Below, in pieces: positions 1 to 13,657 of a DNA stretch of 13,657 nucleotides. Origin of the DNA: a virus. The position numbers and the translations under genes are program-made. The notes below the pieces were generated by a model. The model had not been told where the DNA came from. It saw nothing but the letters and a program-made list of their open reading frames with translations, and made no database searches. Position 1 is the stretch's first letter. The number at the start of each line of letters is the position of its first letter. The DNA lies in the UHGV virus genome UHGV-0069434. One strand, 5' to 3'.

Positions 1-126
1 TTTTAGTTTAGTGGGGTCTTTGCGTGTTGCCTGTAGGCGGCCTGTTCGTATCCAGTTGGTAGCGGTAGGTCTGGATATCTTGAGAAACTGACAGGCCTCA
101 TCGAGTGTGAGGCTGTATGGCTCCAT
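1..126 (-). CDS. Excisionase/AlpA-family HTH DNA-binding protein, partial (start codon in window, 3' end beyond position 1)
   Basis: Reverse-complement translation from ATG at 126..124 gives MEPYSLTLDEACQFLKISRPTATNWIRTGRLQATRKDPTKLK, a typical excisionase-type helix-turn-helix. Start overlaps the stop of the upstream gene (TAATG). Not in the ORF track because it is truncated. Confidence 0.5.
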   Translation of the reverse strand, partial: MEPYSLTLDEACQFLKISRPTATNWIRTGRLQATRKDPTKLK

Positions 127-431
127 TATTTCACCTCTTGCTGTGTCATTGTTGAAAAATGGATACCAGCTCGTTGCTGCCAGACGATCCAACCGAGAGT
201 CATATCCCATGCCATGTATTCGTTATCGCCGTTTTTTGCTCTCCGACGATCTACTAAGTCACCGAAACGCTTTTCCATGAATAATTCATAGGCTTCGCGT
301 TCATCTGGCTCTACTTCCAGAGATACGAGTGCGATTTCATAAGCACGGCGCTCAATATCGTCTCGAACCTCTAGGCTGCTGATTCGTTCTTTGATTTCTT
401 TAATCAGTTCTTTATTGGTAAATGTGGTCAT
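126..431 (-). CDS. yfdT: Hypothetical phage early protein, 101 aa (YfdT-like by size and position)
   Basis: ORF track; ATG start overlaps the stop of the upstream gene by 1 nt (TAATG). No recognisable motif; symbol assigned only from the match of length and gene order to the CPS-53 yfdPQRST cluster, recalled from memory. Confidence 0.55.
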   Translation of the reverse strand: MTTFTNKELIKEIKERISSLEVRDDIERRAYEIALVSLEVEPDEREAYELFMEKRFGDLVDRRRAKNGDNEYMAWDMTLGWIVWQQRAGIHFSTMTQQEVK

Positions 432-793
432 TATGCTCCAGCCTCCGGTGCTTTTGGCATTACTGCCCAGTGAGTGATATTGACGTTTTCAAGGTCCCCG
501 ACCTGAAATGTCCACTGCCATTCTCCGGTTTCTTTTTGTCCCCAGGTGTACCAGAGAGAACGCCAGCCAATCAGCCAGCCTTCTCCATTAGCATCAAATA
601 ACAGAACACTTTCATTTGCTGGTGGCAGTTCAGCTGACACTGGTATTATTTTGTTTTCCAGTGCCGCACATTTAGCTTCAAGCGCGTCGAATTTACGTAC
701 CAGGTACTCAGCATTTGTTTCGTTCACTTTCAGATCTCGCGGTACACATTTCCCGCGAAGAAACCCTTCCATTTCGAAAACATTCATGCGCAT
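431..793 (-). CDS. yfdS: DUF551-like phage protein, 120 aa (YfdS-like)
   Basis: ORF track; C-terminus ITHWAVMPKAPE resembles the THW-x-PLP-x-PP signature I recall for DUF551. An alternative start at the second Met (787) would give an ATGA overlap with the upstream gene stop. Length and order match CPS-53 yfdS. Confidence 0.55.
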   Translation of the reverse strand: MRMNVFEMEGFLRGKCVPRDLKVNETNAEYLVRKFDALEAKCAALENKIIPVSAELPPANESVLLFDANGEGWLIGWRSLWYTWGQKETGEWQWTFQVGDLENVNITHWAVMPKAPEAGA

Positions 794-1320
794 TTGCGTA
801 ACTCCGATAAATCGTTAAAACGTTCCATAAACATCCCGTAGGCATGACCCGGTGCCAGTGGAATCACGTTGAACATCTCTGTTGCCGGGATGCCTTCCAG
901 TACAGGCCAGAAAGAGCCATCATCAAGCCCGAGATCGCGGCGTTCGGTTGCCAGCATGATGAGATCGGCATATTTCACGGGTGTACTCATAACTGGGGGT
1001 AACCCGTATTTCTCACGGATTACGGCGTCTATTTTTTCTTCCATCCGTTTATAGTCAGGAAGAAGGCGTTTCAGTGGTGCGGGAATGTCCTGGCAATACG
1101 CTTCTGTTGCATCATGCATTAACGCTTCAAAAGCAAATTCCTGCGGCACCAGCTGGCTGCAAAGAACCGCATGTTGGGCGACGCTGTAGAAGTGCGAAAG
1201 ATGACCGGCAAAGCGACAGATATTTGAAAGGGAAACCGCGATATCGTTAATATCGATGTCGTCTTTATTTATCTTGTCATAATAAAAATGCTTCCCGGAA
1301 AAAGTTTTAATAAATGACAT
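784..1320 (-). CDS. yfdR: HD-domain phosphohydrolase, 178 aa (YfdR-like 5'-deoxynucleotidase family)
   Basis: HD-domain motifs in translation: SVAQHAVL (His), ALMHDATEAY (His-Asp), KYADLIMLATERRDL (Asp). Track ORF starts at GTG 1347; I prefer ATG at 1320 (MSFIKTF...), preceded by GGAG about 7 nt upstream, giving 178 aa, the length I recall for E. coli YfdR. Confidence 0.7.
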   Translation of the reverse strand: MSFIKTFSGKHFYYDKINKDDIDINDIAVSLSNICRFAGHLSHFYSVAQHAVLCSQLVPQEFAFEALMHDATEAYCQDIPAPLKRLLPDYKRMEEKIDAVIREKYGLPPVMSTPVKYADLIMLATERRDLGLDDGSFWPVLEGIPATEMFNVIPLAPGHAYGMFMERFNDLSELRKCA

Positions 1321-1413
1321 TTTGTTCTCCACGTATATGCACTGCACCGCGCTGAATTCTGGTAAAAGGAAGCCCTCACCATCCGGTGATTATTGAGTTA
1401 ATTACGTTTCCAT

Positions 1414-1435
1414 AAATGCCCCCGCAGGGGCATTT
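1414..1435. terminator. Perfect 9-bp-stem hairpin (AAATGCCCC-cgca-GGGGCATTT) between yfdQ-like stop and yfdR-like start; possible intra-operon terminator/attenuator
   Basis: Palindrome read directly from sequence. GC-rich core with a short A/T flank and no long U-tract, so terminator strength is uncertain. Confidence 0.3.
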
Positions 1436-1447
1436 GCAGTAATGAAA

Positions 1448-2272
1448 TCAGGCGGTGAAAGTACCAATAAAGGTTTCTACTTTGCTGTCTTTGAATTTCT
1501 CAACAAGCAGATCACGAAATTCGTTAGCCATTTCTTCCTGCACCGCTTCCAGCTGAATAATGCGCAGAACCAGTACAGGACGATCGCCAGTGATAATGCT
1601 GAGGCGTAATTTAAACGGACGTTCTTTCAGACCTTCAAACGGAACGCATTTAAATTCAAATGTCACTGGCATAATGTCTTTGGTCTTCGCTTCGACAGAC
1701 TCCATCAGGGAGCGTTTGCCGCTGAAGTCATTATCTTCAAAATCAGCGGTCTGGTTCGCTTCAATTGTGATTTTACGGATCGCCGCAGCCGCTTTGGTTG
1801 CCTGAATGGCGTCACCATTAGCATCAAAGCCCACAAGATAGTCGGCCCAGTCTTCAATCCATTCTGCCAGTGACTTCTGGGAGTTACGCTCGCCGTTAAC
1901 AGACAACAGGGCAGAGAACGGTGCTGTCTTTTTCAGTTTGAGAGTGGCGGTGTTATCTGCGTGACCTGGTTCATCAATAGTACCCAGGTTAAGCACACTG
2001 ACGGCTCGCATATTATCGGCATCGATAAAGCAGCGGGTGCCTTCATCTGCAAGATCTTTAGAATAACGGGTAAAGTCATCGATGCTGGCAGTGGAAAGCG
2101 CACCACGGAAACGGAAGCGATTTAAATTAAATTTTTCCAGATCATGAATGCGGAAATTCTCAGGCAATGCCACAGCATCGGCACCAATCTTACTGATAAT
2201 TTCATTAACACCCTGAGCAGAAATAAGGGCATGGATTTGATTAATTGCGGTTGCGTCTAAGTTCTGAGACAT
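1448..2272 (-). CDS. yfdQ: DUF2303-like phage protein, 274 aa (YfdQ-like)
   Basis: ORF track; ATG at 2272 preceded by GAGGA about 6 nt upstream. Length and position match CPS-53 YfdQ (274 aa, from memory). No catalytic motif recognised. Confidence 0.65.
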
Positions 2273-2337
2273 AATAAGTCCTCACTATATAAAGATATTC
2301 AGTGATGAGATAAATAATCAGTTTATTAAGAACGATA

Positions 2338-2700
2338 TTAATGACCTGCTGCGCGTAGTTTTCCGTCAGGTTCACCGGCAAGAGTCAGTAATTGTCCCTG
2401 GTCTTCCTGCAGAATAGTCAGGCGACCACCGCGATTGACATACATCGGCGTTTCGGTGGTGTCTTCTTCGGAAATTTTCCCGCGGTTAGTTGGGCGAACA
2501 TATGAGAGTTTGTGTTTGATTTTCACACGGTTCTCATCAAACGGTTCGATTTCCAGGTTGAGCGAGACCTTACCTTTGGTTTTCGTGTTCATCACACCGG
2601 AAGCGACTTCACTGAGAACTGCGCCGAGTTTGGTTTCAAATACGCCGCCGTCCAGCTCCCCGATAAATGCCTGCACATCAGTACTGCGTTCGCTAGCCAT
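2338..2700 (-). CDS. yfdP: Hypothetical phage early protein, 120 aa (YfdP-like); first gene of the leftward early operon
   Basis: Track ORF 2338..2931 (197 aa) has a long N-terminal extension. Internal ATG at 2700 (MASERSTDVQ...) is preceded by AGGAG 7-8 nt upstream and gives exactly 120 aa, matching CPS-53 YfdP length from memory. The upstream extension runs through a structured inverted-repeat region. Confidence 0.55.
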   Translation of the reverse strand: MASERSTDVQAFIGELDGGVFETKLGAVLSEVASGVMNTKTKGKVSLNLEIEPFDENRVKIKHKLSYVRPTNRGKISEEDTTETPMYVNRGGRLTILQEDQGQLLTLAGEPDGKLRAAGH

Positions 2701-2748
2701 TTTGCTGCTCCTCATCATATCGACCCTGCAAGGTCGGTTGGTTTCTCC

Positions 2749-2837
2749 ACAAAACAGAGAAGAACACCTGCGGTGACTGCCGCCCGGATGGATTGGGTTA
2801 TGAGCCCGTCGTCCGGTGATTCTCTTCTCTGTTTTGT
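2749..2837. repeat. Perfect 15-bp inverted repeat (ACAAAACAGAGAAGA at 2749..2763; TCTTCTCTGTTTTGT at 2823..2837) separated by 59 bp, in the leader upstream of the yfdP-like gene
   Basis: Read directly from the sequence; the arms are exact reverse complements. The spacer contains further short inverted repeats (CCGG-rich). Confidence 0.6.
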
Positions 2838-3308
2838 AAAAAGAGCGGTACCAGCCGGAAGCAAGGGTACAAACTGGTACCGCCAAAGCAGTGGCTGTTG
2901 TGGTGGGGTTGTCACTCAGGCGTATGGTCAACCTGACAATCCGGTGCCCTCAACGGGGAAAGAGTAACCCCGCCATACTTACCGCCGCGCCATTTCGCGG
3001 ATTACCACAACGCTGAGAGCACTTAGCCAGTTACGGCACCACACTTTGTCGCGGCTCCATAAATGCCCTCATCGTTGCACCCTGGTCTCTTCCCAGGCGT
3101 CAAACCGAATCGCCACGCTGGTTAGGCGTCTTATCAGCATCATCATTGACTTGCACATTCCGGCTACCTGGTTTGTTTGCCCGAGCAAGGAGTGGATTGT
3201 CCCCTTTAACGTCCCCAGACCGCTAACGACGCATGTGCCATACGCCGTGTTACAACCAAATTTTGTTAGTACCTTGTTTGTTTGTCTGGAAAGAAAGATA
3301 AAATGAAG

Positions 3309-3323
3309 TTGCGCATTATGCAA
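3309..3323. promoter_or_regulatory. Operator site OL-a: TTGCgcattatGCAA (TTGC-N7-GCAA palindrome)
   Basis: 15-bp site with palindromic ends read directly; the same architecture recurs at 3333..3347 and 4092..4106, flanking the repressor gene on both sides. Confidence 0.5.
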
Positions 3324-3332
3324 GTGTTTTTG

Positions 3333-3347
3333 TTGCGAGATATGCAA
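3333..3347. promoter_or_regulatory. Operator site OL-b: TTGCgagatatGCAA
   Basis: Second copy of the TTGC-N7-GCAA motif, 9 bp from OL-a. Confidence 0.5.
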
Positions 3348-3361
3348 TTTAAAGGGTAATG

Positions 3362-3383
3362 AAAAGCCACCTTTGGGTGGCTA
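3362..3383 (-). terminator. Intrinsic terminator downstream of the cI-like repressor gene
   Basis: Minus-strand transcript: AGCCACC-caaa-GGTGGCT hairpin (7-bp GC-rich stem) followed by TTTTCATT, about 20 nt after the repressor stop codon (3403..3405). Confidence 0.5.
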
Positions 3384-3402
3384 ATTGATGAGGAGGTAAG
3401 GG

Positions 3403-4071
3403 TTAATTGTGTCGCTTAAGGGTTTGTGACCGTCTGATTAAGACCTTTCCAAAGACCATAAACCGGTGTTCATTTTCGCTGGTAATTCCCCATTCACGGT
3501 AAATCTGGTTATCAGAAATCACCAGTAGTTTGTCAGGTATCATTTGCAGTCGTTTGACATAAATTTTATCATCAAAACCAAATACATAGATACCATCTCC
3601 ATCAAACTGATTGATACTGACATCAACGAAGATGAGATCTCCTGGCTCAATGGTTGGACACATACTGTCCCCACGAACGTTGATAACTTTAATGTGATTG
3701 GCTGGCCGTCCGCCAAACATCGATACAGCATTATCAGTTCTGTATTCAATGGCATGAATCACATCAATGACATCACCGCCCTGGATAAGGCCATTTCCCG
3801 CACTGGCACTGACATCCAGCATTTCAATACGGAATACATCCTTCACCTGCGCAACATCCTCACTAATACTGTTTTTACATACAGTATTACTTTTGACGTC
3901 TGAGGTAAAGAGATCAGCAATATCAACACCTAAGCTCCTGGCAATATTACTCAGGGCTTGTTCAGTGAATTGTTTCTGCTTACCTGTTTCCAGTCCTATT
4001 GCTTCAGCGAGATCGGCGATTTTCATGTTCTTCGCCTGGCGAAGTTGTCTGACTCGGTTTCCTATGTTCAT
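3403..4071 (-). CDS. cI-like prophage repressor, 222 aa: N-terminal XRE-type HTH plus C-terminal S24 (LexA-like) autopeptidase domain
   Basis: N-terminus NRVRQLRQAKNMKIADLAEAIGLETG is a typical HTH; C-terminus has the S24 motif VRGDSMCPTIEPGDLIFVD and a candidate Ala-Gly cleavage site (SASAGNG). Divergent from a cro-like gene, with operators on both sides. Confidence 0.85.
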   Translation of the reverse strand: MNIGNRVRQLRQAKNMKIADLAEAIGLETGKQKQFTEQALSNIARSLGVDIADLFTSDVKSNTVCKNSISEDVAQVKDVFRIEMLDVSASAGNGLIQGGDVIDVIHAIEYRTDNAVSMFGGRPANHIKVINVRGDSMCPTIEPGDLIFVDVSINQFDGDGIYVFGFDDKIYVKRLQMIPDKLLVISDNQIYREWGITSENEHRFMVFGKVLIRRSQTLKRHN

Positions 4072-4168
4072 GCGTTTATTACATTTCTTTATTGCGCGTT
4101 AAGCAAATCAACTTGCGCAAAATATTTGCGTGAAATAATATGCTCATCACGCAATATGTGGAGGTCAT
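4072..4168. promoter_or_regulatory. OR region with divergent promoters (pR-like rightward for cro; pRM-like leftward for the repressor)
   Basis: Perfect operator TTGCgcgttaaGCAA at 4092..4106; palindromic TTGCGCAA at 4113..4120; weaker ATGCtcatcacGCAA at 4140..4154. Rightward: -35 TTGCGC (4113..4118), 17 nt, -10 TAATAT (4136..4141), then GGAGG before cro ATG 4169. Leftward: -35 TTGCTT (rc of 4101..4106), 17 nt, -10 TGTAAT (rc of 4078..4083), which places the start at or next to the repressor ATG (leaderless, as for lambda pRM). Confidence 0.5.
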
Positions 4169-4429
4169 ATGCAATCACCATTACGGAATATGCGTAAGGC
4201 GCACGGATTTACTTTGCAGCATGTTGCTGCTGGCGTTCAGGTCAATCCAGCGACGCTGAGTCGTATTGAAAGACTGGAACAAATTCCATCTATCGATCTT
4301 GCAGAACGTCTGGCCAATTTTTTTAAGGGTGAAATCAGCGAAATGCAGATTCTTTATCCGGCACGTTTTCAATCTAGCCAAAACCAGAATGGGTTTAAAC
4401 CACAGGAACAGGAGGTAAGCCGTGGGTAA
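4169..4429 (+). CDS. Cro-like HTH (XRE family) regulator, 86 aa
   Basis: ORF track; HTH signature GFTLQHVAAGVQVNPATLSRIERLEQIPS; divergent from the repressor; GGAGG 4 nt upstream of ATG. Confidence 0.75.
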   Translation: MQSPLRNMRKAHGFTLQHVAAGVQVNPATLSRIERLEQIPSIDLAERLANFFKGEISEMQILYPARFQSSQNQNGFKPQEQEVSRG

Positions 4430-4973
4430 TCATCACTGGAAAGTGGAAAAACAGCCTGAGTGGTACGTGAAAGCTGTCAGAAAAACTATCGCGGCGTTGC
4501 CGGGGGGTTACGCTGAAGCTGCTGAGTGGCTGGATGTAACAGAGAACGCATTATTTAACCGCCTTCGTGCCGATGGCGATCAGATTTTCCCGCTGGGATG
4601 GGCAATGATTTTACAACGTGCTGGTGGCACTCACTTCATTGCCGACGCTGTGGCGCAGTCTGCAAATGGCGTCTTTGTGTCTCTTCCTGACGTCGAGGAT
4701 GTGGACAACGCCGATATTAACCAGCGCCTGCTGGAAGTCATTGAACAGATTGGCAGTTATTCCAGACAGATTCGTTCGGCAATCGAAGACGGTGTGGTGG
4801 AACCGCATGAGAAGACAGCAATTAACGACGAGCTGTATCTCTCAATTTCGAAGCTGCAGGAGCATGCAGCACTGGTCTACAAAATCTTCTGCGCTCCAGA
4901 AAAGAGTAACGCCCGCGAGTGTGCAGCTCCGGGCGCCGTGGCGTGTCGTGACTGTGGAGAAACTAACGCATGA
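4422..4973 (+). CDS. CII-like early regulatory protein, 183 aa
   Basis: GTG start with GGAGG about 7 nt upstream; overlaps cro stop. Region [36 protein letters not shown] resembles the HTH and following helix of lambda CII as I recall it; position immediately after cro fits. Confidence 0.55.
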
Positions 4974-5308
4974 ACAGTTTAACAACACACTACCGTCGCT
5001 CGCAACTGATTGCGCTTCCTGTACCGGGTGGAAAAGCGAAGGTGGAGTATTGCTATGCAGTAAATGTACCAGGTGACAGGGAAATTGTAACCCACAGCTT
5101 TGCTGAGTGGGCTGTGGGAGATTTCAACCGGCAGAAGGAGACAGTCCTTTGCGACAAGTTAACCGCTGGTTCAAAGATCACTACGGAGTGCCCGTCAGAG
5201 TCATTCGTTGGGAGCCGGAAACACAACGAGTTATCTACCTCCGCGAAGGCTATGAGCATGAGTGCTTCAGCCCGCTCGAACAGTTTCGTCGTAAATTCAG
5301 GGAAATAG
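4970..5308 (+). CDS. Hypothetical protein, 112 aa in track; the N-terminal roughly 60 aa look protein-like, the C-terminal half is Ser-rich low complexity
   Basis: ATG overlaps the preceding stop (ATGA). The compositional change after about residue 60 coincides with the start of a better-looking ORF in another frame (5149..5328). Confidence 0.4.
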
Positions 5309-5328
5309 AGGTCGGTCATGAGCACTAA
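5149..5328 (+). CDS. Small protein, about 59 aa, alternative frame ([58 protein letters not shown])
   Basis: TTG at 5149 is preceded by AAGGAG (5135..5140) at 8-nt spacing. The translation has balanced, protein-like composition. Track lists the frame from GTG 5107, which lacks an SD. Stop overlaps the replication gene start by 11 nt. Confidence 0.4.
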
Positions 5329-6175
5329 ATTAACCGGCTATGTATGGGATGGTTGCGCTGCGTCAGGCATGAAATTATCCAGCGTGGCAATTATGGCCCG
5401 CCTGGCTGATTTCAGTAATGACGAAGGTGTGTGCTGGCCATCAATTGAAACTATTGCCCGTCAGATTGGCGCGGGGATGAGTACCGTCAGAACGGCTATC
5501 GCACGGCTGGAAGCAGAAGGCTGGTTAACGCGTAAGGCGCGTCGCCAGGGTAACCGCAATGCGTCGAATGTTTATCAGCTTAACGTTGCGAAGCTTCAGG
5601 CAGCGGCATTTTCTCAACTGTCAGATTCTGACCCGTCAAAATCTGACGCATCAAAATCTGACACGTCAAAATTTGATGTGTCGAAATCTGGCAAAAAAGC
5701 GGGTTTTCACCCGTCAGAATCTGGCGGGGATCCGTCAGTAAAATCAAAACAAGATCCACAAGTAACTTCAAAACCCTCTTGTCCGGTTGCGGCGCAACCC
5801 GACCCTGAAGTTGTGATTACCGACCAGGCAATTTTGGTTCTGACCCATTTGAACCAGATCAGCGGATCCCGGTATCAGAAATCAAAAACATCCCTGGAGA
5901 ACATCCGCGCCCGACTGCGTGAGGGATACAGCGTTGCAGACCTGCAACTCGTTATCGACCTGAAGCATGAGCACTGGCACGAGAACGACGAGCAGTACCA
6001 GTACATGCGGCCGGAAACGCTGTTTGGCCCGAAGAAATTCGAGAGCTATCTGCAAAGCGCTACCCGCTGGGATCAGAAGGGACGGCCTAAACGCGCTGAC
6101 TGGGGTGCGAAAAAGCGCGATGTGATGGCTTTTGGTCCGGTTGATACAACGATTCCAGAGGGGTTCAGAGGATGA
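5318..6175 (+). CDS. Phage replication initiator / replisome organiser (lambda O-like role), 285 aa
   Basis: N-terminal HTH-like region (VAIMARLADFSNDEGVCWPSIETIARQIGAGMSTVRTAIARLEAEGWL). C-terminal region (LTHLNQISGSRYQKSKTSLENIRARLREGY...HEHWHENDEQYQYMRPETLFGPKKFESYLQSA) resembles the conserved phage replication-protein C-terminal domain. Tandem iterons lie inside the gene. Confidence 0.7.
   Translation: MSTKLTGYVWDGCAASGMKLSSVAIMARLADFSNDEGVCWPSIETIARQIGAGMSTVRTAIARLEAEGWLTRKARRQGNRNASNVYQLNVAKLQAAAFSQLSDSDPSKSDASKSDTSKFDVSKSGKKAGFHPSESGGDPSVKSKQDPQVTSKPSCPVAAQPDPEVVITDQAILVLTHLNQISGSRYQKSKTSLENIRARLREGYSVADLQLVIDLKHEHWHENDEQYQYMRPETLFGPKKFESYLQSATRWDQKGRPKRADWGAKKRDVMAFGPVDTTIPEGFRG
5621..5726. 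repeat. Tandem 15-bp iteron-like direct repeats (core GTCAAAATCTGAC), putative phage origin of replication inside the initiator gene
   Basis: Read directly: CCGTCAAAATCTGAC (5633..5647), GCATCAAAATCTGAC (5648..5662), ACGTCAAAATTTGAT (5663..5677), GTGTCGAAATCTGGC (5678..5692), plus partial copies at 5621..5632 and 5711..5725. Each core has internal dyad symmetry (GTCA...TGAC). The repeats encode SKSD-type peptide repeats and generate the repetitive ORF artefacts at 5559..5771. Confidence 0.55.
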
Positions 6176-7071
6176 CGTTAAACAAATATTGCCAGGCGCT
6201 GGCGGCACTACGTAGCAAACCAGCCCACCAACTGAAAGAAGTTGGCGATCAGTGGCGGACGCCGGATCTGCTTTTTTGGGGGATCAACGCGCTATTTGGT
6301 CCATTAGTTTTGGACTTGTTTGCAGACGACGACAACGCGAAATGCCCGGTATGGTACACCGCCGAAGATAACGCGCTGGTGCAGGATTGGGCGGAAATGT
6401 TGGATTCAATCGGCGGGGCCGCATTCGGTAATCCACCCTATAGCCGCTCTCAGTACCACGAGAAACAGGCGATCACCGGCATGACCCACATCATGGATCA
6501 CACAATGGAGATGCGTGAAAAGGGTGGGCGTTATGTGTTCCTCATTAAAGCGGCGACAAGTGAAACATGGTGGCCGGAAGACGCCGATCACATCATGTTT
6601 ATTCGCGGTCGCATTGGTTTCGATCTCCCTGTGTGGTTTGTTCCTGCCGACGATAAGCAGAAACCCACAGGTGCTTTCTTTGCTGGTGCAATCGCTTTGT
6701 TCGACAAGACCTGGCGCGGCGAGCGTTTCAGCTACATCAGCCGTACCGATCTGGAGGAAAAAGGGAAGGCGTTTATGTCACTGGTCGAATTTGCCGCGGG
6801 AAAGGTTCAGCCACCAGCCACCATGGTGCCAGAGCAAGAAGAACCCATTGTAGCGCCAGCAGTATTACCTGATGTGGATTCGCGTATCTGGCCGCTTGAG
6901 GTTGGTCTGGTGTTCAACCAGGTTGAGGGGGCGGATTCTCTGGACGCATCGCAGCAGAACAAGCTGAAAGCGAACATTAACCAGCTGTGGCTTGAGCGTA
7001 TGCCAACCAGCGAAATCATTACTACTGCTGGTGGACTGGTCAGCAGCATGCAGGGGGCCATCAATGCGTGA
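6172..7071 (+). CDS. Phage-type N6-adenine DNA methyltransferase (phage Dam family), 299 aa
   Basis: LDLFADDDNAKCPVWYTAEDNALVQDWAEM...FGNPPYSRS matches the phage N6A-methyltransferase family signature including the NPPY catalytic motif. ATGA overlap with the replication gene stop. About 100 aa of C-terminal extension beyond the usual domain size. Corresponds in position to the yfdM fragment of CPS-53. Confidence 0.8.
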   Translation: MTLNKYCQALAALRSKPAHQLKEVGDQWRTPDLLFWGINALFGPLVLDLFADDDNAKCPVWYTAEDNALVQDWAEMLDSIGGAAFGNPPYSRSQYHEKQAITGMTHIMDHTMEMREKGGRYVFLIKAATSETWWPEDADHIMFIRGRIGFDLPVWFVPADDKQKPTGAFFAGAIALFDKTWRGERFSYISRTDLEEKGKAFMSLVEFAAGKVQPPATMVPEQEEPIVAPAVLPDVDSRIWPLEVGLVFNQVEGADSLDASQQNKLKANINQLWLERMPTSEIITTAGGLVSSMQGAINA

Positions 7072-9061
7072 GATTATCGTTGATAACTTTGCTGGTGGCG
7101 GTGGCGCATCAACGGGTATTGAACTGGCGATCGGGCGCAGCGTGGATATTGCGATCAACCACGACGAAAACGCCATTGCGATGCACAAGACGAACCACCC
7201 GGACACACTGCATTACTGCGAATCCGTGTTTGACGTGGATCCGGTAGCCGCCACTGGCGGTAATCCTGTCGGCCTGGCATGGTTTAGCCCGGACTGCCGA
7301 CATTTCTCGAAGGCCAAAGGCGCAAAGCCTGTGAAAAAAGAGATACGCGGTCTTGCCTGGATTGTTCTGCGTTGGGCACTGGCGAAGCGACCGCGCGTGA
7401 TGATGCTGGAGAACGTGGAAGAGTTCAAAACGTGGGGACCGTTAATTGACATCCCGCCTAAACCTGATTTGCCGGAAGCCCTTATGGCGGATTTTATTGG
7501 CCCGGTTTACCCTGGAAATAGTCGCCCAGACCCTGCCCGCACTGGAGAAACATTCAATGCATTTGTCGGCATGCTGTCCACTGGCATTCCTGCTGATCAC
7601 CCGGCACTGTCAGAGGTTTGTGAGTTTCTGTCTATTGAAAGAGGTAGCGAGCAGGCGCAACAGTTGGTGGATGGGCTTGGATATGATGTCGATTATCGCG
7701 AACTGCGCGCGTGTGATTACGGCGCGCCGACGATCCGCAAACGCTTCTTCATGGTCATGCGCTGCGATGGTTGTCCAATCCAGTGGCCTGCTGTTACCCA
7801 TGGGGATCCTAAGTCTCTGGAGGTGCAGAGCGGCAGGCTGATGCCATGGCGTACCGCTGCGGAATGTATCGACTGGAATGTTCCGGCCCTGTCCATCTTC
7901 GACCGCAAAAAACCGCTGGCGGAGAACACTCTGAAGCGGATCGCGCGCGGCATACAGCGCTTTGTTATCGAAAGTGCGTCGCCGTTTATCGTGAAGTGTA
8001 ACCACACAAGCTCAAAAAATTCGTATGACGCTTTTCGCGGGCAGTCGCTGAATGAGCCATTACAGACCATTACTAAAAAACTCGGCTACGCGTTAGCCGT
8101 TCCACACCTGACAAAATTCCGCACTGGCGCAACCGGGCAGCCCGTTACCGAACCAGTCCCGACGGTAACCGCTGGCACATCAAAACGTCCAGGTGGGAAT
8201 GGGCATGCACTCGGGATTGTTGAGGCTGCACTGACGCCATTCCTGGCGGGTAATGGCGGGAGTGAATACCAGGCTAAACCGCGCCCGCTGGATAAACCTG
8301 CTCATACCATTCTGAAGCAATCCCGCGCCTGTCTTGTTGCGCCAGTGATAGCCCGCCAGTTTGGGGCCAGCGTAGGCCATCGGGCAGACGAACCGAGCGC
8401 AACCATCACCGCTGGCGGTGGCGGTAAATCTCAACTGGTAACGCCTACGCTGATCCAGATGGGTTATGGCGAACGACCTGGACAAGAACCGCGTGTGCTG
8501 CGGCTGGATAACCCGCTGGGGACCGTTACTGCAGGTGGAAATAAATTCGCGACGGTGAGCGCGTTTCTGGCGAAACACTACGGCGGTAACTACACGGGAC
8601 CGGGTGTCAGTATGGATGAACCCGCGCACTCAGTGACCACTGTCGACCATCATGCAGTAGTTGCCTCTCATCTGGTGAAACTGCGTGGAACATGCCGCGA
8701 CGGGCAGCGCCTTGATGTACCTATGCCAACCATCACCGCTGGAGGCCAGCACGTGGGTGAGGTGCGCACATTTCTCGAGACATATTGCGGGGAAAGTGAC
8801 GATGAATGGCTGGTAACGATCAATGGGGTTAAATACCAGATCGTTGATATCGGAATGCGCATGTTGCAGCCGCATGAACTCTACAAAGCGCAGGGCTTCC
8901 CGGATGGATACGTTATTGATCAGGACTACCGTGGAAATCGCTATGCAAAAGATAAGCAGGTAGCCCGCTGCGGTAATGCGGTACCACCACCATTCGCCAG
9001 GGCGCTGGTGGAGGCAAATCTTCCGGAACTTTGTGCAGTGCAACAACAGGAGGTGGCATGA
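7064..9061 (+). CDS. DNA cytosine-5 methyltransferase, 665 aa, with expanded repeat-containing variable region
   Basis: Motif I DNFAGGGGAS; Cys motif WFSPDCRHFS (PCQ-like variant); motif VI MMLENV; later QGFPDGY and CGNAVPP (motif X-like). I take ATG at 7064 (MREIIV..., G-rich SD, 8-nt overlap with upstream stop) rather than the track's upstream extension from 6992. Confidence 0.8.
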   Translation: MREIIVDNFAGGGGASTGIELAIGRSVDIAINHDENAIAMHKTNHPDTLHYCESVFDVDPVAATGGNPVGLAWFSPDCRHFSKAKGAKPVKKEIRGLAWIVLRWALAKRPRVMMLENVEEFKTWGPLIDIPPKPDLPEALMADFIGPVYPGNSRPDPARTGETFNAFVGMLSTGIPADHPALSEVCEFLSIERGSEQAQQLVDGLGYDVDYRELRACDYGAPTIRKRFFMVMRCDGCPIQWPAVTHGDPKSLEVQSGRLMPWRTAAECIDWNVPALSIFDRKKPLAENTLKRIARGIQRFVIESASPFIVKCNHTSSKNSYDAFRGQSLNEPLQTITKKLGYALAVPHLTKFRTGATGQPVTEPVPTVTAGTSKRPGGNGHALGIVEAALTPFLAGNGGSEYQAKPRPLDKPAHTILKQSRACLVAPVIARQFGASVGHRADEPSATITAGGGGKSQLVTPTLIQMGYGERPGQEPRVLRLDNPLGTVTAGGNKFATVSAFLAKHYGGNYTGPGVSMDEPAHSVTTVDHHAVVASHLVKLRGTCRDGQRLDVPMPTITAGGQHVGEVRTFLETYCGESDDEWLVTINGVKYQIVDIGMRMLQPHELYKAQGFPDGYVIDQDYRGNRYAKDKQVARCGNAVPPPFARALVEANLPELCAVQQQEVA

Positions 9062-9444
9062 AACTTGTGCTCCCGTTCCCTCCGAGCGTGAACACTTACT
9101 GGCGCGCCCCTAACAAGGGGCCGCTGGCCGGTCGTCACCTCATTAGCGCTGATGGCCGTAAATACCAGAGCGCTGCCTGCGTGGCGATCATTGAGCAATT
9201 ACGACGTCTCCCGAAGCCATCGACTGAACTGGCAGCGGTAGAAATCACTCTGTACCCGCCGGATGCGCGCCGCCGGGATATCGATAATTACAACAAAGCC
9301 CTGTTTGACGCGCTGACACATGCGGGTGTCTGGGAAGACGACAGCCAGATTAAGCGCATGCTGGTGGAATGGGGACCCGTTGTGCCGAAAGGTCGGGTAG
9401 AGATAACGATCAGCAGATATGAACCGGCGGGTGCAGCCGCCTGA
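9058..9444 (+). CDS. rusA: Crossover junction endodeoxyribonuclease RusA (Holliday junction resolvase), 128 aa
   Basis: MKLVLPFPPSVNTYWR...DARRRDIDNYNKALFDALTHAGVWEDDSQI matches the RusA family (PPS-N-xYW N-terminus, catalytic Asp cluster). ATG at 9058 with GGAGG upstream and ATGA overlap with the methyltransferase stop; the track's upstream extension is rejected. Confidence 0.85.
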   Translation: MKLVLPFPPSVNTYWRAPNKGPLAGRHLISADGRKYQSAACVAIIEQLRRLPKPSTELAAVEITLYPPDARRRDIDNYNKALFDALTHAGVWEDDSQIKRMLVEWGPVVPKGRVEITISRYEPAGAAA

Positions 9445-9457
9445 TATGGAGAAAAGT

Positions 9458-10144
9458 ATGAGCCAGTTAATCGTGAATGGTGTTGTAACAATGTCCAGCC
9501 GTGATATTGCGGATCTGGTTCAGAGTAAACACAGTGACGTGAAACGCTCGGCTGAGCGTCTTGTTGCTGCGGGAATTTTAACCGCGCCGTTGGCGCAGTT
9601 CGATTTTGAGCATAACGGTAATGTTTACCAGGAGTATCGTTTTAACAAACGCGACTCTCTGGTGATTGTTGCCAGACTGTCACCTGAATTTACCGCCGCG
9701 GTTGTCGATCGCTGGCAGGAACTGGAAGAAGGGCAGAGTGTCAGTGTTCCCCGCTCATTGCCGGAAGCGCTTCGCCTGGCTGCTGATTTAGCCGAGCAGA
9801 AAGAGCAACTGACCATCCAGCTGGCAGCTGCGGCGCCAAAAGTGGAGTTTGTTGATCGTTATTGCTCTGCAAAAGGCTCCATGTCATTCCGGCAGGTAGC
9901 CAAATTGCTCAACGCAAAAGAAACTGAGTTCCGCCTGTTCCTTATTGAACGCAATATCCTGTATCGCCTCGGCGGCACACTTACCCCTATGGCGCAGCAC
10001 ATTTCCGCGGGAAGATTTGAAGTTAAGACGGGAACATCGAGCACATCCAATCACGCATTTAGCCAGACGCGTTTCACTGCCAAGGGAGTACGCTGGATTG
10101 GTGGTTTGTGGGCTGAACATATTGCAGGGGGACAGGCGGCGTGA
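9458..10144 (+). CDS. Phage antirepressor, 228 aa: Rha-type N-terminal domain plus KilA-C/ANT C-terminal domain
   Basis: N-terminus VTMSSRDIADLVQSKHSDVKRSAERL...YRFNKRDSLVIVARLSPEF is typical of Rha; C-terminus FRQVAKLLNAKETEFRLFLIERNILYRLGG is KilA-C-like. Start at ATG 9458 (GGAG 6 nt upstream) preferred over track start 9419. Confidence 0.75.
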   Translation: MSQLIVNGVVTMSSRDIADLVQSKHSDVKRSAERLVAAGILTAPLAQFDFEHNGNVYQEYRFNKRDSLVIVARLSPEFTAAVVDRWQELEEGQSVSVPRSLPEALRLAADLAEQKEQLTIQLAAAAPKVEFVDRYCSAKGSMSFRQVAKLLNAKETEFRLFLIERNILYRLGGTLTPMAQHISAGRFEVKTGTSSTSNHAFSQTRFTAKGVRWIGGLWAEHIAGGQAA

Positions 10145-11136
10145 GGGCTTTGTTAACTCCTGAAGTCGCCCATCGTATGGGGATTGTGTTGTTTCGTCCC
10201 GGCGCGGAACTGATGCACCTCTTCATGCGTGGTCGCGTTCTGCTCGAGCCTGAACCAGAAGAAATGGCGTCATTCAGTACAGGGGCTGTTCCCGCCGCCA
10301 TTCAGACGCTGGCTGATGATCCGGTAATGCGGCAGGTCTTCGGGAATGAGCGGGTTATTCAGCGTGCCGGTGGGCTTCCTTCCCTTGAGCAGTGGCTGAG
10401 TTCTCGGTTTGAATGCCAGTGGCCACATTCATCGTGGCACGACAAGAATTTCACAACAATGCGGCACCCACCAGGAAGTATTCGCCTGTGCTGGCATTGC
10501 GATCACACTTTGTCGGGGCAGCATACCGAACAGCTTGCAGGTATAGCGGCAGGAAACCTGGTATCCTGGATTCTGGAAGTCATTCGGCGTGATTCTGGTT
10601 TTCCCGAGTCGCATATCCTGACGCTTCCGGAACTGTGCTGGTGGATGGTCAGAAACGACCTGGCTGATGTTATTCCGGAAAGCGTTGCGCACAAGGGGTT
10701 ACGCCTTCCGGATGAGAAGATCCGCTCGGTCATGAGGGAAAGCGACATTGTGCCTTCCGCTTCTGCAACCAGCCTAGTGCAGGAGAAGGCGAAGAAGATC
10801 CTCACGCTCTCTGTTGATCCGGAGTCTCCAGAATCTTTCATGCTCAGGCCAAAGCGACGCCGCTGGATAAATGAGACTTACACCCGCTGGGTTAAAACAC
10901 AACCCTGTGAGTGTTGCCGACGGCCAGCCGATGATCCGCACCATATCGTAGGGCACGGTATGGGGGGGACAGCAACAAAAGCCCATGATCTCTTCGTGAT
11001 CCCTCTGTGCAGAGAGTGCCACGACGAGTTACACGCCGATGTACCGGCATTCGAGCAGAAGCATGGTACGCAGCTTGAGCTGCTACTGCGTTTTATGGAT
11101 CGGGCGCTGGCGATCGGCGTAATTGCGAAAGCTTAA
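10141..11136 (+). CDS. Phage protein with C-terminal Cys/His-rich HNH-like nuclease motif (DUF968-like), 331 aa
   Basis: GTG start overlapping the previous stop (GTGA). C-terminus CECCRRPADDPHHIVGHGMGG...LCRECHDELH is a zinc-binding HNH-like signature. Sits where nin-region nucleases are found in lambdoid phages. Confidence 0.6.
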   Translation: MRALLTPEVAHRMGIVLFRPGAELMHLFMRGRVLLEPEPEEMASFSTGAVPAAIQTLADDPVMRQVFGNERVIQRAGGLPSLEQWLSSRFECQWPHSSWHDKNFTTMRHPPGSIRLCWHCDHTLSGQHTEQLAGIAAGNLVSWILEVIRRDSGFPESHILTLPELCWWMVRNDLADVIPESVAHKGLRLPDEKIRSVMRESDIVPSASATSLVQEKAKKILTLSVDPESPESFMLRPKRRRWINETYTRWVKTQPCECCRRPADDPHHIVGHGMGGTATKAHDLFVIPLCRECHDELHADVPAFEQKHGTQLELLLRFMDRALAIGVIAKA

Positions 11137-11847
11137 GTGTATGGAGCGCAAAGAAGCATGAATCAACAAGATCTGAATTTTGTAAGAATAGAATTGCGCC
11201 ACGCGCTACCTGACCTCTCTGGGGGAACAAAAGGGCAGCTTGAGGCTTTCAGTGAACACCCACCAGCAGACAAAAATGCCACCCCGCGCCGTGGAATTCA
11301 TCTCGTCGAACTCGAAGGAGAGAAGGGGCCACGCTTTGTTAACTCGCTTTCCGCGCCACTGTATGTGATGGAAACACGCAGCCGCCGCAGGCCAATGCCG
11401 CCGATAAAAGATGCGGAATTTGAGTCAGCGCCGTGGCGTAGGGCAGTGTCCGCGCTTAGTGGATACCAGCAGGCCTGGTTGCGGTACTGCTACGGTTTTG
11501 ACCTTAGCTATAAGCACCAGGTGATGATGTGTGAATACGTCTGGAAAACTTATCAGAAATGCCTGGGTGATAACTCGCTTCAGGAGCGCGTAGTAAAGAA
11601 ACTGATAGGCCTGGTATGGCTGGCAGGGCAGGAAATTGCCGCAACCAGAAATAATGAAACCTATAAAGACTATGCTGGTGCAGCGTTGGCCCGCATGGTT
11701 AGCGTTGACCGTTCGACATGGTTGCGTGTCTATTCAGGCCACTGGGCTGGGTTAAAGACCGCTTTTACGCAGCTTGATGAATCTGCGTTGACCATGGCTC
11801 TTGAATACTATGAGGAAGAAGAAGCCCTCAAAGTGGCAGAAATGTGA
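11137..11847 (+). CDS. Putative late-gene antiterminator (Q-like by position), 236 aa
   Basis: Last gene of the rightward early operon, immediately followed by a promoter-like region and a strong intrinsic terminator, which is the Q / PR' / tR' arrangement. No sequence motif recognised with confidence; an alternative ATG start lies at 11158. Confidence 0.45.
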   Translation: MYGAQRSMNQQDLNFVRIELRHALPDLSGGTKGQLEAFSEHPPADKNATPRRGIHLVELEGEKGPRFVNSLSAPLYVMETRSRRRPMPPIKDAEFESAPWRRAVSALSGYQQAWLRYCYGFDLSYKHQVMMCEYVWKTYQKCLGDNSLQERVVKKLIGLVWLAGQEIAATRNNETYKDYAGAALARMVSVDRSTWLRVYSGHWAGLKTAFTQLDESALTMALEYYEEEEALKVAEM

Positions 11848-11869
11848 AGTAAATTTCACTATCTCCTTC

Positions 11870-11930
11870 AAACGCGCTTGCAAAATGCAACAAAATAAGC
11901 CATATTTAAAGCATATTTGATATGTTGCCA
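11870..11930 (+). promoter_or_regulatory. Candidate late promoter (PR'-like), possibly with a Q-utilisation site
   Basis: -35-like TTGCAA at 11878..11883 with A/T-rich -10 candidates downstream (CATATT, TATTTA, TATTTG); exact hexamers are ambiguous. Positional inference. Confidence 0.3.
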
Positions 11931-11939
11931 ATGGTTTAT

Positions 11940-11966
11940 AAACCCGCCGATGAGCGGGTTTTTTTA
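11940..11966 (+). terminator. Rho-independent terminator (tR'-like): AAACCCGC-cgatga-GCGGGTTT followed by a T-run
   Basis: Read directly: GC-rich stem 11942..11947 / 11954..11959 with 6-nt loop, then TTTTTTT to about 11965. Confidence 0.7.
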
Positions 11967-12087
11967 TGGCAAATCAGCCATGCACGGCGCATAAAGGCGC
12001 TGGCGGTCGCAGAATGGAATTCTTCTCTTGCTGGTATCACCAACCAGAGTTATCTGTATGTCACGCAACTAATTTTAGGTAAAAGAC

Positions 12088-12279
12088 ATGCTAAATCAGG
12101 AAGATATGACAGAAACGGCAAAGGCTGTTTTCAATGAATTAAGCGATAAACCAGCAACGGCCGGGGAGATTGCACTGAATACCCACCTCAGCCGCGAACG
12201 TTGCCAGCTCATACTTACGCAGCTGGTGATGGCGGGTTTATCTGATTACCAGTTTGGGTGTTATAAACGCCTCCAGTAA
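12088..12279 (+). CDS. Small hypothetical protein, 63 aa (57 aa from the alternative ATG at 12106), possibly DNA-binding
   Basis: ORF track. AGGT 7 nt before ATG 12088, and AGGAAG 4-5 nt before the second ATG at 12106. Helix-rich sequence AGEIALNTHLSRERCQLILTQLVMAGL. No homology check possible. Confidence 0.4.
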   Translation: MLNQEDMTETAKAVFNELSDKPATAGEIALNTHLSRERCQLILTQLVMAGLSDYQFGCYKRLQ

Positions 12280-12306
12280 TGGGGGCTTTCTGCTGTGGAA
12301 ATGGGC

Positions 12307-12337
12307 GGCTGGTGGGTGTTAGCGCACCCGGCCAGCC
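12307..12337 (+). other. Stable GC-rich stem-loop (about 12-bp stem with one bulge, 6-nt loop) in the 5' leader of the methyltransferase gene
   Basis: GGCTGGTGGGTG-ttagcg-CACCCGGCCAGCC read directly; no following U-tract on either strand. Confidence 0.4.
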
Positions 12338-12429
12338 ATCAGCTCATGCTTTCAGGTCACAAGCTAACCAAGGCCCACTGCTTTAGCGCAAAAGCAACGT
12401 GAGCCTATCAGAGTTACGCTTACTGATCT

Positions 12430-13482
12430 ATGAAAAATACTGTAAAAATAAACAGTGTTGAGTTAATCAACGCTGATAGCCTGCATTACGTCGCCACCCT
12501 CCCGGATAACTCTATTGATCTGATAGTTACGGATCCTCCGTACTTCAAAGTGAAGCCCAACGGCTGGGACAACCAATGGAAGGGGGACGAGGACTACTTA
12601 CGCTGGCTTGATAGCTGCCTGGCTGAGTATGCTCGCGTTCTTAAACCTGCTGGCAGCATCTACCTGTTTTGCGGTCATCGACTGGCCTCAGACATAGAGA
12701 TTATGATGCGTGCCCGGTTCAACATTTTGAATCACATCATCTGGGCAAAGCCATCGGGCCGCTGGAATGGTTGTAACAAAGAAAGCCTGCGCGCGTATTT
12801 TCCATCAACGGAACGGATTTTGTTTGCTGAGCACTATCTTGGGCCGTACACAGGTAAAGAGGATGTTTACGAAAGGAAAAGCACAGAGCTAAAGCAGCAT
12901 CTTATGACGCCACTGATTGACTACTTCCGTAATGCCCGTGAATCACTGGGTGTCAGCTCGAAAGAAATAGCTGAGGCAACCGGAAAGAAAAACATGGCGT
13001 CACACTGGTTTGGTGCAAGCCAATGGCAACTACCAAATGAAGTGGACTATAGAAAATTGCAGGAACTGTTCACGAGGATCGCTATCGATAAGCACATTCA
13101 GCAGAAGCTTGAACATCCTCACCACCAGCTGGTAGCCACCTATCAGTCATTAAACCGCAAGTATTCAGAATTGCTGGAGGAATACAAAACCCTCCGGCGC
13201 TGCTTCTCTGTTTCCGTTCTTGTTCCGTATACCGACGTATGGACGCATAAGCCTGTTCAGTTTTATCCAGGCAAACATCCATGCGAAAAACCTGCCGACA
13301 TGCTGAAGCAGATCATTAGCGCCAGCAGCAGACCGGGGGATATCGTTGCCGATTTCTTTATGGGCTCTGGTTCAACTGTGAAAGCTGCAATAGAACTTGG
13401 TCGTCGGGCGATCGGCGTAGAACTGGAAACCGACAGGTTTATTCAAACCACCGAAGAGGTGGAAAAACTCAACAAAACATAA
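12430..13482 (+). CDS. Beta-class amino-methyltransferase, probably N6-adenine (motif IV before motif I), 350 aa
   Basis: N-terminal SIDLIVTDPPYF (DPPY motif IV) and C-terminal DIVADFFMGSGSTVKAA (FxGxG AdoMet motif I), with a roughly 200-aa intervening target-recognition region. Weak SD at the ATG. Confidence 0.8.
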   Translation: MKNTVKINSVELINADSLHYVATLPDNSIDLIVTDPPYFKVKPNGWDNQWKGDEDYLRWLDSCLAEYARVLKPAGSIYLFCGHRLASDIEIMMRARFNILNHIIWAKPSGRWNGCNKESLRAYFPSTERILFAEHYLGPYTGKEDVYERKSTELKQHLMTPLIDYFRNARESLGVSSKEIAEATGKKNMASHWFGASQWQLPNEVDYRKLQELFTRIAIDKHIQQKLEHPHHQLVATYQSLNRKYSELLEEYKTLRRCFSVSVLVPYTDVWTHKPVQFYPGKHPCEKPADMLKQIISASSRPGDIVADFFMGSGSTVKAAIELGRRAIGVELETDRFIQTTEEVEKLNKT

Positions 13483-13625: not shown

Positions 13626-13657
13626 ATGACCAGAATGAGCACCATTTACAGCAGACT
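13626..13657 (+). CDS. Start of next gene (partial, MTRMSTIYSR...), function unknown
   Basis: ATG at 13626 preceded by GGAGGTGAGG. Only 10 codons are in the window. Confidence 0.3.
   Translation, partial: MTRMSTIYSR

Follow-up and report, generated by a model that had tools for sequence, protein, structure and literature searches.

The stretch of DNA analysed here (13,657 nt of the virus genome UHGV-0069434; hereafter, the window) is a fragment of a lambdoid prophage that extends from the immunity region to the lysis genes. Its relatives include CPS-53, ST64B, and phiNP, and it carries three DNA methyltransferase (MTase) genes, namely, one for a Dam-family N6-adenine MTase (hereafter, Dam), one for a C5-cytosine MTase (hereafter, the C5 MTase), and one for a beta-class N6-adenine MTase (hereafter, the third MTase). 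The question raised by this locus is what a temperate phage does with three such enzymes, that is, whether they have restriction partners, when they are made, and what they methylate. We consider it probable (roughly 0.7) that the three are orphan MTases, distributed over two transcription units, with a protective role. The original prediction, which was made from the DNA sequence by itself, had described them as an anti-restriction or epigenetic arsenal expressed early, together with replication; this interpretation was supported in part, and a protective arsenal is a reasonable reading that agrees with published work. However, the MTase genes appear to fall into two groups by time of expression, where the original prediction had one, and it had overlooked what is most unusual at this locus, namely, the seven modules in the variable region of the C5 MTase.

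The three MTases were intact, at the predicted coordinates, and of three classes, and the matches to the family models (PF05869/TIGR01712, PF00145, and PF01555, respectively) were far above the curated cutoffs; such E values and conserved catalytic motifs are not to be expected by chance. Dam matched PF05869 with 151 bits (cutoff, 28.1; E value, 3e-44; match, amino acids (aa) 19-199) and TIGR01712 with 205.6 bits (cutoff, 97); the catalytic motif NPPY was located at aa 87-90 (nt 6430-6441), and the full-length protein was matched by PDLC03332 of PADLOC and by phrog_111. The C5 MTase matched PF00145 (E value, 4e-20). Its start was assigned to the ATG at nt 7064 and not to the TTG at nt 6992; this gives MREIIVDNFAGGGG, in agreement with all of the homologues. 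The third MTase matched PF01555 (E value, 1e-43), with DPPY at aa 35-38 (nt 12532-12543) and FMGSG at aa 310-314 (nt 13357-13371).

The third MTase was 75% identical to M.EcoGII (262 of 348 residues, with 2 gaps, over the full length including the target-recognition domain (TRD) region; the M.EcoGII sequence was taken from Supplementary Table S1 of PMC11551740). Its identity to the MTase of phage 1720a-02, named as a close relative of M.EcoGII (PMC5778455), had the same value (75%). M.EcoGII is likewise prophage-encoded (E. coli O104:H4 C227-11) with the same beta-class order of motifs (DPPY, then FxGxG), and its family comprises M.EcoGI, the MTase of phage 1720a-02, and the 'DNA methylase' of Stx2 phages. 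M.EcoGII methylates adenine irrespective of the surrounding sequence and blocks a large number of restriction enzymes; in the lysogen it is silent, and attempts at its constitutive expression harmed the health of the cells (PMC5778455). The central region of M.EcoGII (aa 160-237) has been modelled as a four-helix-bundle TRD (PMC11551740), and the central region of the third MTase aligned with it; this TRD accounts for the approximately 100 residues of the third MTase beyond the Pfam model. By its likeness to M.EcoGII, from which 25% of the residues differ, the third MTase would be non-specific. A review places M.EcoGII within the protective-methylation strategy of phages, and the anti-restriction role that had been proposed for this locus agrees with what has been published about M.EcoGII and about the orphan MTases of phages.

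As for the timing, early expression together with replication can be proposed only for Dam and the C5 MTase, from the position of their genes in the cro-to-Q operon. It does not hold for the third MTase, the gene of which comes after Q and a strong terminator-like hairpin (Table 1) and adjoins the lysis genes. The predicted 8-nt overlap between the Dam and C5 genes (ATGCGTGA, nt 7064-7071) and the junction of Dam with the replication initiator gene (ATGA, nt 6172-6175) were both read in the sequence. The C5 and rusA genes also overlapped (ATGA, nt 9058-9061), as did cro/cII and Ant/DUF968; since such overlaps (4-8 nt) were found at many junctions, tight coupling is a trait of the whole early-right operon and is not specific to the MTase genes. 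The third MTase gene is probably part of a Q-dependent late transcript, because its position after Q and the hairpin resembles the well-established pR'-tR' arrangement of phage lambda, and the hairpin is a candidate tR'-type terminator that would be read through by Q. Against this late transcript, a consensus scan of the stretch from Q to the hairpin returned no promoter; by eye, a promoter-like pair (TTGCAA, 17 nt, CATATT; from nt 11878, approximately 30 nt past Q) was found, but it was weak (8 of 12 positions matched). The pair and the hairpin together (nt 11878-11961) resemble the short-transcript arrangement of lambda pR'-tR'.

A second, weaker terminator-like site (nt 12269-12286) was observed at the end of the small winged helix-turn-helix (wHTH) open reading frame (ORF) that precedes the third MTase gene. 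A small ORF was present at the same place upstream of this type of MTase in phiNP, an E. coli prophage, phiP27 (annotated there as 'TrmB family transcriptional regulator'), and Stx2a_1447, the likeness being one of position. Control of the toxic MTase by the winged-helix ORF is possible, similar to that exerted by C-proteins in restriction-modification (R-M) systems. In the Stx2 phage examined, a related MTase was located at the same place after Q, likewise with a small ORF before it; however, there the MTase gene was followed by tRNAs and stx genes, whereas here a holin gene followed the third MTase gene directly.

The course of events that we propose is as follows. One transcription unit would be the early-right operon (cro, cII, the replication initiator, and so on to Q) including Dam and the C5 MTase, and the other would be the Q-dependent late operon, in which the winged-helix ORF and the M.EcoGII-type MTase are followed by holin, lysozyme, and Rz. 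After induction, Dam and the C5 MTase would methylate the replicating phage DNA; late, just before packaging, the non-specific adenine MTase would methylate the phage DNA broadly, and the progeny DNA, on entering the next host, would already be protected from a large number of Type I-III restriction systems. All three genes would be silent in the lysogen, and the toxicity reported for M.EcoGII would thus be avoided. Note that we infer the timing of expression, the targets, and the anti-restriction role, as well as the multispecificity considered below, and this has to be set against the proposal.

Two other explanations of the three genes were considered. One of the MTases, especially the third, could be the modification half of an R-M system with its nuclease just outside the window, which ends 31 nt into the next gene, so that a partner there would not be visible. 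However, in a metagenome contig with an identical C5 protein and the same gene content that extends further (L004), the ORF in question (starting with MTRMSTIYSR) proved to encode a 92-aa class II holin and was followed by lysozyme and Rz-like genes; a holin gene was also found after this MTase in phiNP and in a related E. coli prophage, and tRNAs and stx2 were found there in Stx2a_1447. No restriction endonuclease or defence partner was detected by PADLOC, Pfam, or PHROGs among the proteins tested, as had been predicted, and PADLOC matched the window proteins tested with MTase models only. The MTase genes have the replication initiator, RusA, the wHTH ORF, and the holin as neighbours, and the DUF968/HNH gene that precedes Q belongs to the usual lambdoid gene set and also occurs in ST64B and Stx2 phages, where the C5 MTase is absent. 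The R-M reading of the third MTase was therefore rejected; with holin, lysozyme, and Rz-like genes and no nuclease downstream, the three MTases are orphans, and a missing nuclease half is extremely improbable. It is also rather unlikely that the MTases serve the biology of the phage itself (replication control, packaging, regulation, or epigenetics of the lysogen) instead of restriction evasion. The genes for Dam and the C5 MTase do lie between those for the replication initiator and RusA, distant relatives are likewise located in replication modules, and, according to a review, packaging of phage P1 depends on Dam methylation at its pac sites, and viral replication cycles may be under the control of many of the orphan MTases. 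However, the C5 gene is dispensable in close relatives such as ST64B, E. coli relatives carry a short Dam only, regulatory information tied to particular sites cannot be conveyed by an adenine MTase that is non-specific, and the reported silence of M.EcoGII in lysogens (PMC5778455) argues in the same direction.

The catalytic residues of the C5 MTase (Table 1) were invariant in 126 diverse homologues (40-98% identity), and motifs IX and X aligned to DNMT1 in the PDB chain alignments. Structure prediction with AlphaFold2 using 40 close homologues was unusable (the pLDDT, or predicted local distance difference test, averaged 46); with the 126 diverse homologues, most of the catalytic domain (aa 1-310 and 590-660) was predicted with a pLDDT of at least 85, and a Foldseek search with this domain returned 3g7u, DNMT1/MET1, M.HaeIII, and M.HhaI with a probability of 1.00. 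The best match among the solved structures, in both sequence and fold, was PDB 3g7u, a putative DNA modification MTase of the E. coli prophage CP-933R, which shares the A-P-T-I-R-x-R form of motif VIII (P-T-I-R-K-R in the present family) but, unlike the C5 MTase, has only 376 aa, a short variable region, and the canonical P-C-Q in motif IV. The cysteine of motif IV (C78) was invariant, in the context S-P-D-C-(R/K)-H-F-S as opposed to the canonical G-x-P-C-Q-x-F-S; in this family, an aspartic acid stands between the proline and the catalytic cysteine, and the glutamine is missing. Inteins (Hint, mostly with a LAGLIDADG homing endonuclease domain) were observed in long members of the family from outside the window (931-1113 aa; P0250, P0285, P0325, P0323, P0384, P0316, P0349, and P0406). 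Where the junctions were readable, the intein was inserted exactly between W-F-S-P-D and C-(K/R)-H-F-S, a site that corresponds to nt 7286-7297 of the window. The C-extein thus has the catalytic cysteine of motif IV as its +1 residue, as would be expected of an essential site. The segment of the window from nt 7058 to 9048 (1991 bp) was absent in ST64B (site, L006 3788-3789), where the flanks were 91% and 85% identical; because exactly this segment is missing between similar flanks, the C5 gene is a cassette. The indel was bounded by the overlapping stop/start signals of the adjoining genes, and a LexA-family gene was found at the C5 position in the E. coli and Stx2 relatives.

The stretch of the C5 MTase from motif VIII (aa ~227) to motif IX (aa 599) is approximately 370 aa long, several times the usual length, and seven tandem modules (A-G) were recognised there. 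Their core, [DEN]-x-P-x-x-[TS]-[IV]-[TL], often followed by AGG, was located at aa 332, 364, 412, 444, 484, 520, and 553. The repeats were 64-71% alike at the DNA level, and thus the module duplications are old. In 120 homologues with at least 75% identity, the modules fell into the conserved types A-G and were combined in 14 architectures (ABCDEFG, 43; ABCDFG, 38; ABDEFG, 9; ABCDEFxG, 9; ABCDEFFG, 6; and others), which differed by whole modules and included loss, insertion, and duplication of single modules; in the close homologues, the protein length (580-714 aa) tracked the number of modules (5-8). In the wider family, at least 2537 representative clusters (50% identity), from Proteobacteria to Firmicutes, matched at E < 1e-30; with the limit set at E < 1e-3, the number of representative clusters was 8344. 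Among the 150 best representatives, the lengths were 478-1113 aa, and the 93 that were parsable had 2-9 strict copies of the motif with a modal spacing of 30-39 aa. The distant relatives examined (Paenibacillus and Bordetella; n = 2) were located in prophage replication modules with no nucleases. No description of this C5 family was found in the searchable literature, and literature searches for enterobacterial multispecific C5 MTases returned Bacillus examples only.

The closest parallel is provided by the enzymes of temperate Bacillus phages (M.SPRI, M.Rho11sI, M.H2I, and M.SPBetaI; also M.BceSV), which are likewise phage-borne orphan C5 MTases and in which, according to a review, several TRDs are arrayed in one polypeptide. 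In both these enzymes and the C5 MTase, motifs VIII and IX flank tandem short modules that have a T-[LIV]-T core, a match of architecture only, and the tandem cores were visible in the SPR, rho11s, and H2 sequences (SPTITT, SHTLSA, ATTLTS, SPTLTT, and PAFTVNT). In both, the modules vary as cassettes between relatives. However, the C5 MTase has seven modules, and its family up to nine or more, as compared with about three to five in the Bacillus enzymes, and it belongs to another lineage of the catalytic domain (S-P-D-C in motif IV and T-I-R-K-R in motif VIII) in Gram-negative hosts. Module F resembled the shared TRD of the Bacillus enzymes (DEPAFTVNTIDRHG). In local alignments of the variable region, module F (DEPAHSVTTVDHHAVVASHLVKLR) always paired with the shared last TRD (DEPAFTVNTIDRHGVAIGEYPKYR) of SPR, rho11s, H2, and SPbeta, with z scores of 4.8-6.4, and 0-1 of 500 shuffles reached the score. 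The TRD in question is that for GGCC, and NEPAFTV occurs in M.HaeIII; with the modules as TRDs, module F would be expected to confer a GGCC-type specificity. By the likeness to the multi-TRD Bacillus phage enzymes, the C5 MTase may methylate several cytosine motifs or be relaxed in specificity, a proposal to which we give a little less than an even chance; and it is possible, although we hold it tentatively, that the variable region is a true array of interchangeable TRDs, by which one polypeptide would recognise many motifs and which would be reshuffled by gain and loss of cassettes.

Several observations weigh against such an array. Only one of the seven modules (F) was significantly similar to a known TRD; a pooled hidden Markov model (HMM) of the modules matched the Bacillus multispecific enzymes no better than shuffles did; and neither a search of the module profile against the PDB sequences nor a Pfam search with the isolated variable region and single modules gave a match. 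Against one canonical MTase, the pooled HMM picked out just the 10-aa core DKPSPTITTQ, and the last module with the C-terminus aligned to PDB sequences only at motifs IX-X. The pLDDT of the module region was 30-45 even with the 126 diverse homologues, so that the TRD reading has no support from the fold. In most of the wider C5 family, an extra module (PLHTVTTKDRFGLVTV) stands directly before motif IX, which the subfamily of the window does not have, and this module could be the single functional TRD core. Moreover, given S-P-D-C in place of P-C-Q, the activity of the enzyme is presumed from its sequence, and a protein of Salmonella enterica (P0205; 499 aa, 21 contigs), in which a long Dam including its C-terminal module is fused to the C5 sequence from module D onward, has no C5 motifs I-VIII and is a decayed Dam-C5 pair.

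The C5 MTase might instead be an ordinary single-motif enzyme, the repeats of approximately 35 aa serving as a flexible spacer or as a scaffold that is structural or binds DNA non-specifically, with the specificity provided by one module or from elsewhere. This explanation, which we regard as a serious possibility with odds somewhat short of even, fits the failure of the profile searches and of AlphaFold2 to reveal TRDs or a defined fold in the modules, as well as the resemblance of the extra module of the wider family to the usual single TRD core; in addition, modules A, F, and G are conserved family-wide, as a structural core would be. On the other hand, it accounts poorly for proteins that are otherwise 75-98% identical but differ by the presence, absence, or doubling of whole modules, for the match of the modules with the Bacillus enzymes in size (32-48 aa), in position between motifs VIII and IX, and in the T-[IVL] core, and for the significant similarity of module F to a real TRD. 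Gain and loss by whole modules is the pattern of the Bacillus multispecific enzymes.

Turning to Dam, the C-terminal extension of approximately 100 aa, which had been noted previously as unexplained, is real, since the Pfam match ends at aa 199, and it could be refined into a variable linker and a conserved module of approximately 55 aa (Table 1). This module had 34 invariant columns across 11 diverse copies and forms a PHROG family of its own (phrog_16025); no Pfam family matched it, and its only matches in the PDB were chance matches to CylK repeats. Long forms of Dam (292-299 aa) were common in Citrobacter, Salmonella, Enterobacter, and E. coli, and forms of 439-444 aa had an extra insert of approximately 145 aa between the linker and the C-terminal module, whereas the 217-aa forms of Stx phages and E. 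coli do not have the approximately 95-aa extension that is present here. Because the module is strongly conserved, we speculate that it has a real role, for example, in oligomerisation or in binding of a partner or DNA. A role solely as an adaptor for the C5 MTase was rejected, since the module was found with a C5 gene (phiNP and Eeyore) but also without one (ST64B). The catalytic domain was 94% identical to that of ST64B Sb44 and 73% identical to the 217-aa Dam of Stx2a_1447, which occupies the same position after the replication genes; with the Dam of T1-like phages, it shared only 26-28% identity. The characterised phage members of the Dam family (T1, HP1, and VT2-Sa/933W) are GATC-specific, and GATC is the expected target of the present Dam. 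M.EcoGIX was ruled out as a prophage Dam-family enzyme because it is plasmid-borne. The long Dams of ST64B (sb44; L006 2907-3800) and Eeyore (CDS0032; L007 3361-4695) are labelled 'phosphoadenosine phosphosulfate (PAPS) reductase' in RefSeq and phage records, a name that we rejected, since only PF05869 was matched, and that seems to come from the PHROG family of PAPS-reductase-Dam fusions (phrog_33262).

The three-MTase layout is common in enterobacterial phages. The long Dam, the C5 MTase, and the M.EcoGII-like MTase were found in the same order in Citrobacter phage phiNP, in which all three are annotated as methylases, and in Escherichia phage Eeyore; homologues of all three were present in the unannotated record of Phi06_2987 S, and phage Flotzy matched all three. 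The metagenome contig L004 agreed with the window in its gene content. Stx2 phages and many E. coli prophages had a short Dam gene and an M.EcoGII-like gene at the same two positions.

The window corresponds to an entire metagenome contig (ENA ERZ773225 NODE_3602), and the gene order across it was that of a lambdoid prophage (Table 1). The left arm contains yfdT, a DUF551 protein gene, the YfdR HD-domain 5'-deoxynucleotidase, YfdQ/DUF2303, YfdP, the S24 repressor, cro, and cII. Nt 1-5803 were 97% identical to an E. coli prophage located beside a tRNA-Thr gene downstream of proA, which carries the CPS-53-type genes yfdT, yfdR, yfdQ, and yfdP. The identity fell sharply to the right of nt ~5800, and thus a mosaic joint lies inside the replication initiator gene.

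Table 1. Coordinates of the genes, protein motifs, and sites in the window (aa, amino acids of the encoded protein; +, rightward strand)
Feature	Position	Strand	Evidence and remarks
yfdT/R/Q/P	left part of window	leftward	
cI-like S24 repressor	3403-4071	minus	
cro, cII (CP76), ORF without assigned function	before replication initiator	rightward	
Replication initiator (HTH_36 + Phg_2220_C)	5318..6175	+	Pfam; stop overlaps Dam start (ATGA)
Dam-family N6-adenine MTase, long form, 299 aa	6172..7071	+	PF05869, TIGR01712, PADLOC, PHROGs
Dam catalytic domain	aa 1-~205		
Dam variable linker, Pro/Ala/Glu-rich	aa ~206-235		
Dam C-terminal module SRIWPLEVGLVFNQV.G.D.L...QNKLKANINQLWLER..TSEII	6880..7068, aa 237-299	+	conserved columns, phrog_16025
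C5-cytosine MTase, 665 aa	7064..9061	+	PF00145, PDB alignments, invariant motif residues
C5 motif I, FAGGGG	aa 9-14, nt 7088-7105		F9-A-G-G-G-G14 invariant
C5 motif IV, S-P-D-C	aa 75-78, nt 7286-7297		
C5 motif VI, ENV	aa 116-118		E116-N117-V118 invariant
C5 motif VIII, T-I-R-K-R	aa 223-227		R225, R227 invariant
C5 modular variable region	8021..8821, aa ~320-586	+	seven tandem modules A-G, 32-48 aa each
C5 motif IX	aa 599-613, nt 8858-8902		R599 invariant
C5 motif X, GNAVPPP	aa 637-643, nt 8972-8992		G637-N638-x-V640-x-P642 invariant
RusA resolvase	9058..9444	+	start overlaps C5 stop (ATGA); directly 3' of Dam gene in ST64B
Ant/KilAC antirepressor, then DUF968/HNH gene	between RusA and Q	rightward	
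Antiterminator Q	11137..11847	+	PF06323; closes early-right operon; gene callers start at 11158
Terminator-like hairpin	11940..11961	+	8-bp G+C-rich stem then T7; 93 nt past Q
Winged-helix small ORF, 63 aa	12088..12279	+	phrog_331; weak DprA_WH/TrmB matches
Beta-class N6-adenine MTase, M.EcoGII family, 350 aa	12430..13482	+	PF01555
Class II holin gene start (MTRMSTIYSR...)	13627..13657	+	cut by window end

All three MTases thus come from phage MTase families that are already known, their layout is a recurrent one, and they are ordinary in kind: stacked orphan MTases are a recognised route of pre-protection for temperate phages, and the exact layout already exists in annotated phages. With the third MTase, M.EcoGII, which is in use as a research tool, gains a new relative that is fairly divergent (75% identity), and the location of its gene behind Q offers a concrete explanation for the reported silence of the M.EcoGII family in lysogens. 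The C5 MTase points to a huge and unstudied family with tandem cassette-like modules. Should the modules be TRDs, the family would form a natural collection from which TRD sequences could be assigned to DNA motifs, and such enzymes would be a broad-spectrum source of 5-methylcytosine affecting restriction barriers, modification-dependent nucleases, and horizontal transfer in Enterobacterales. To our knowledge, the principle of the multispecific MTase is so far known only from a few Bacillus phages; if the TRD reading is true, it would be widened to a general phage strategy with a far larger repertoire of TRDs.

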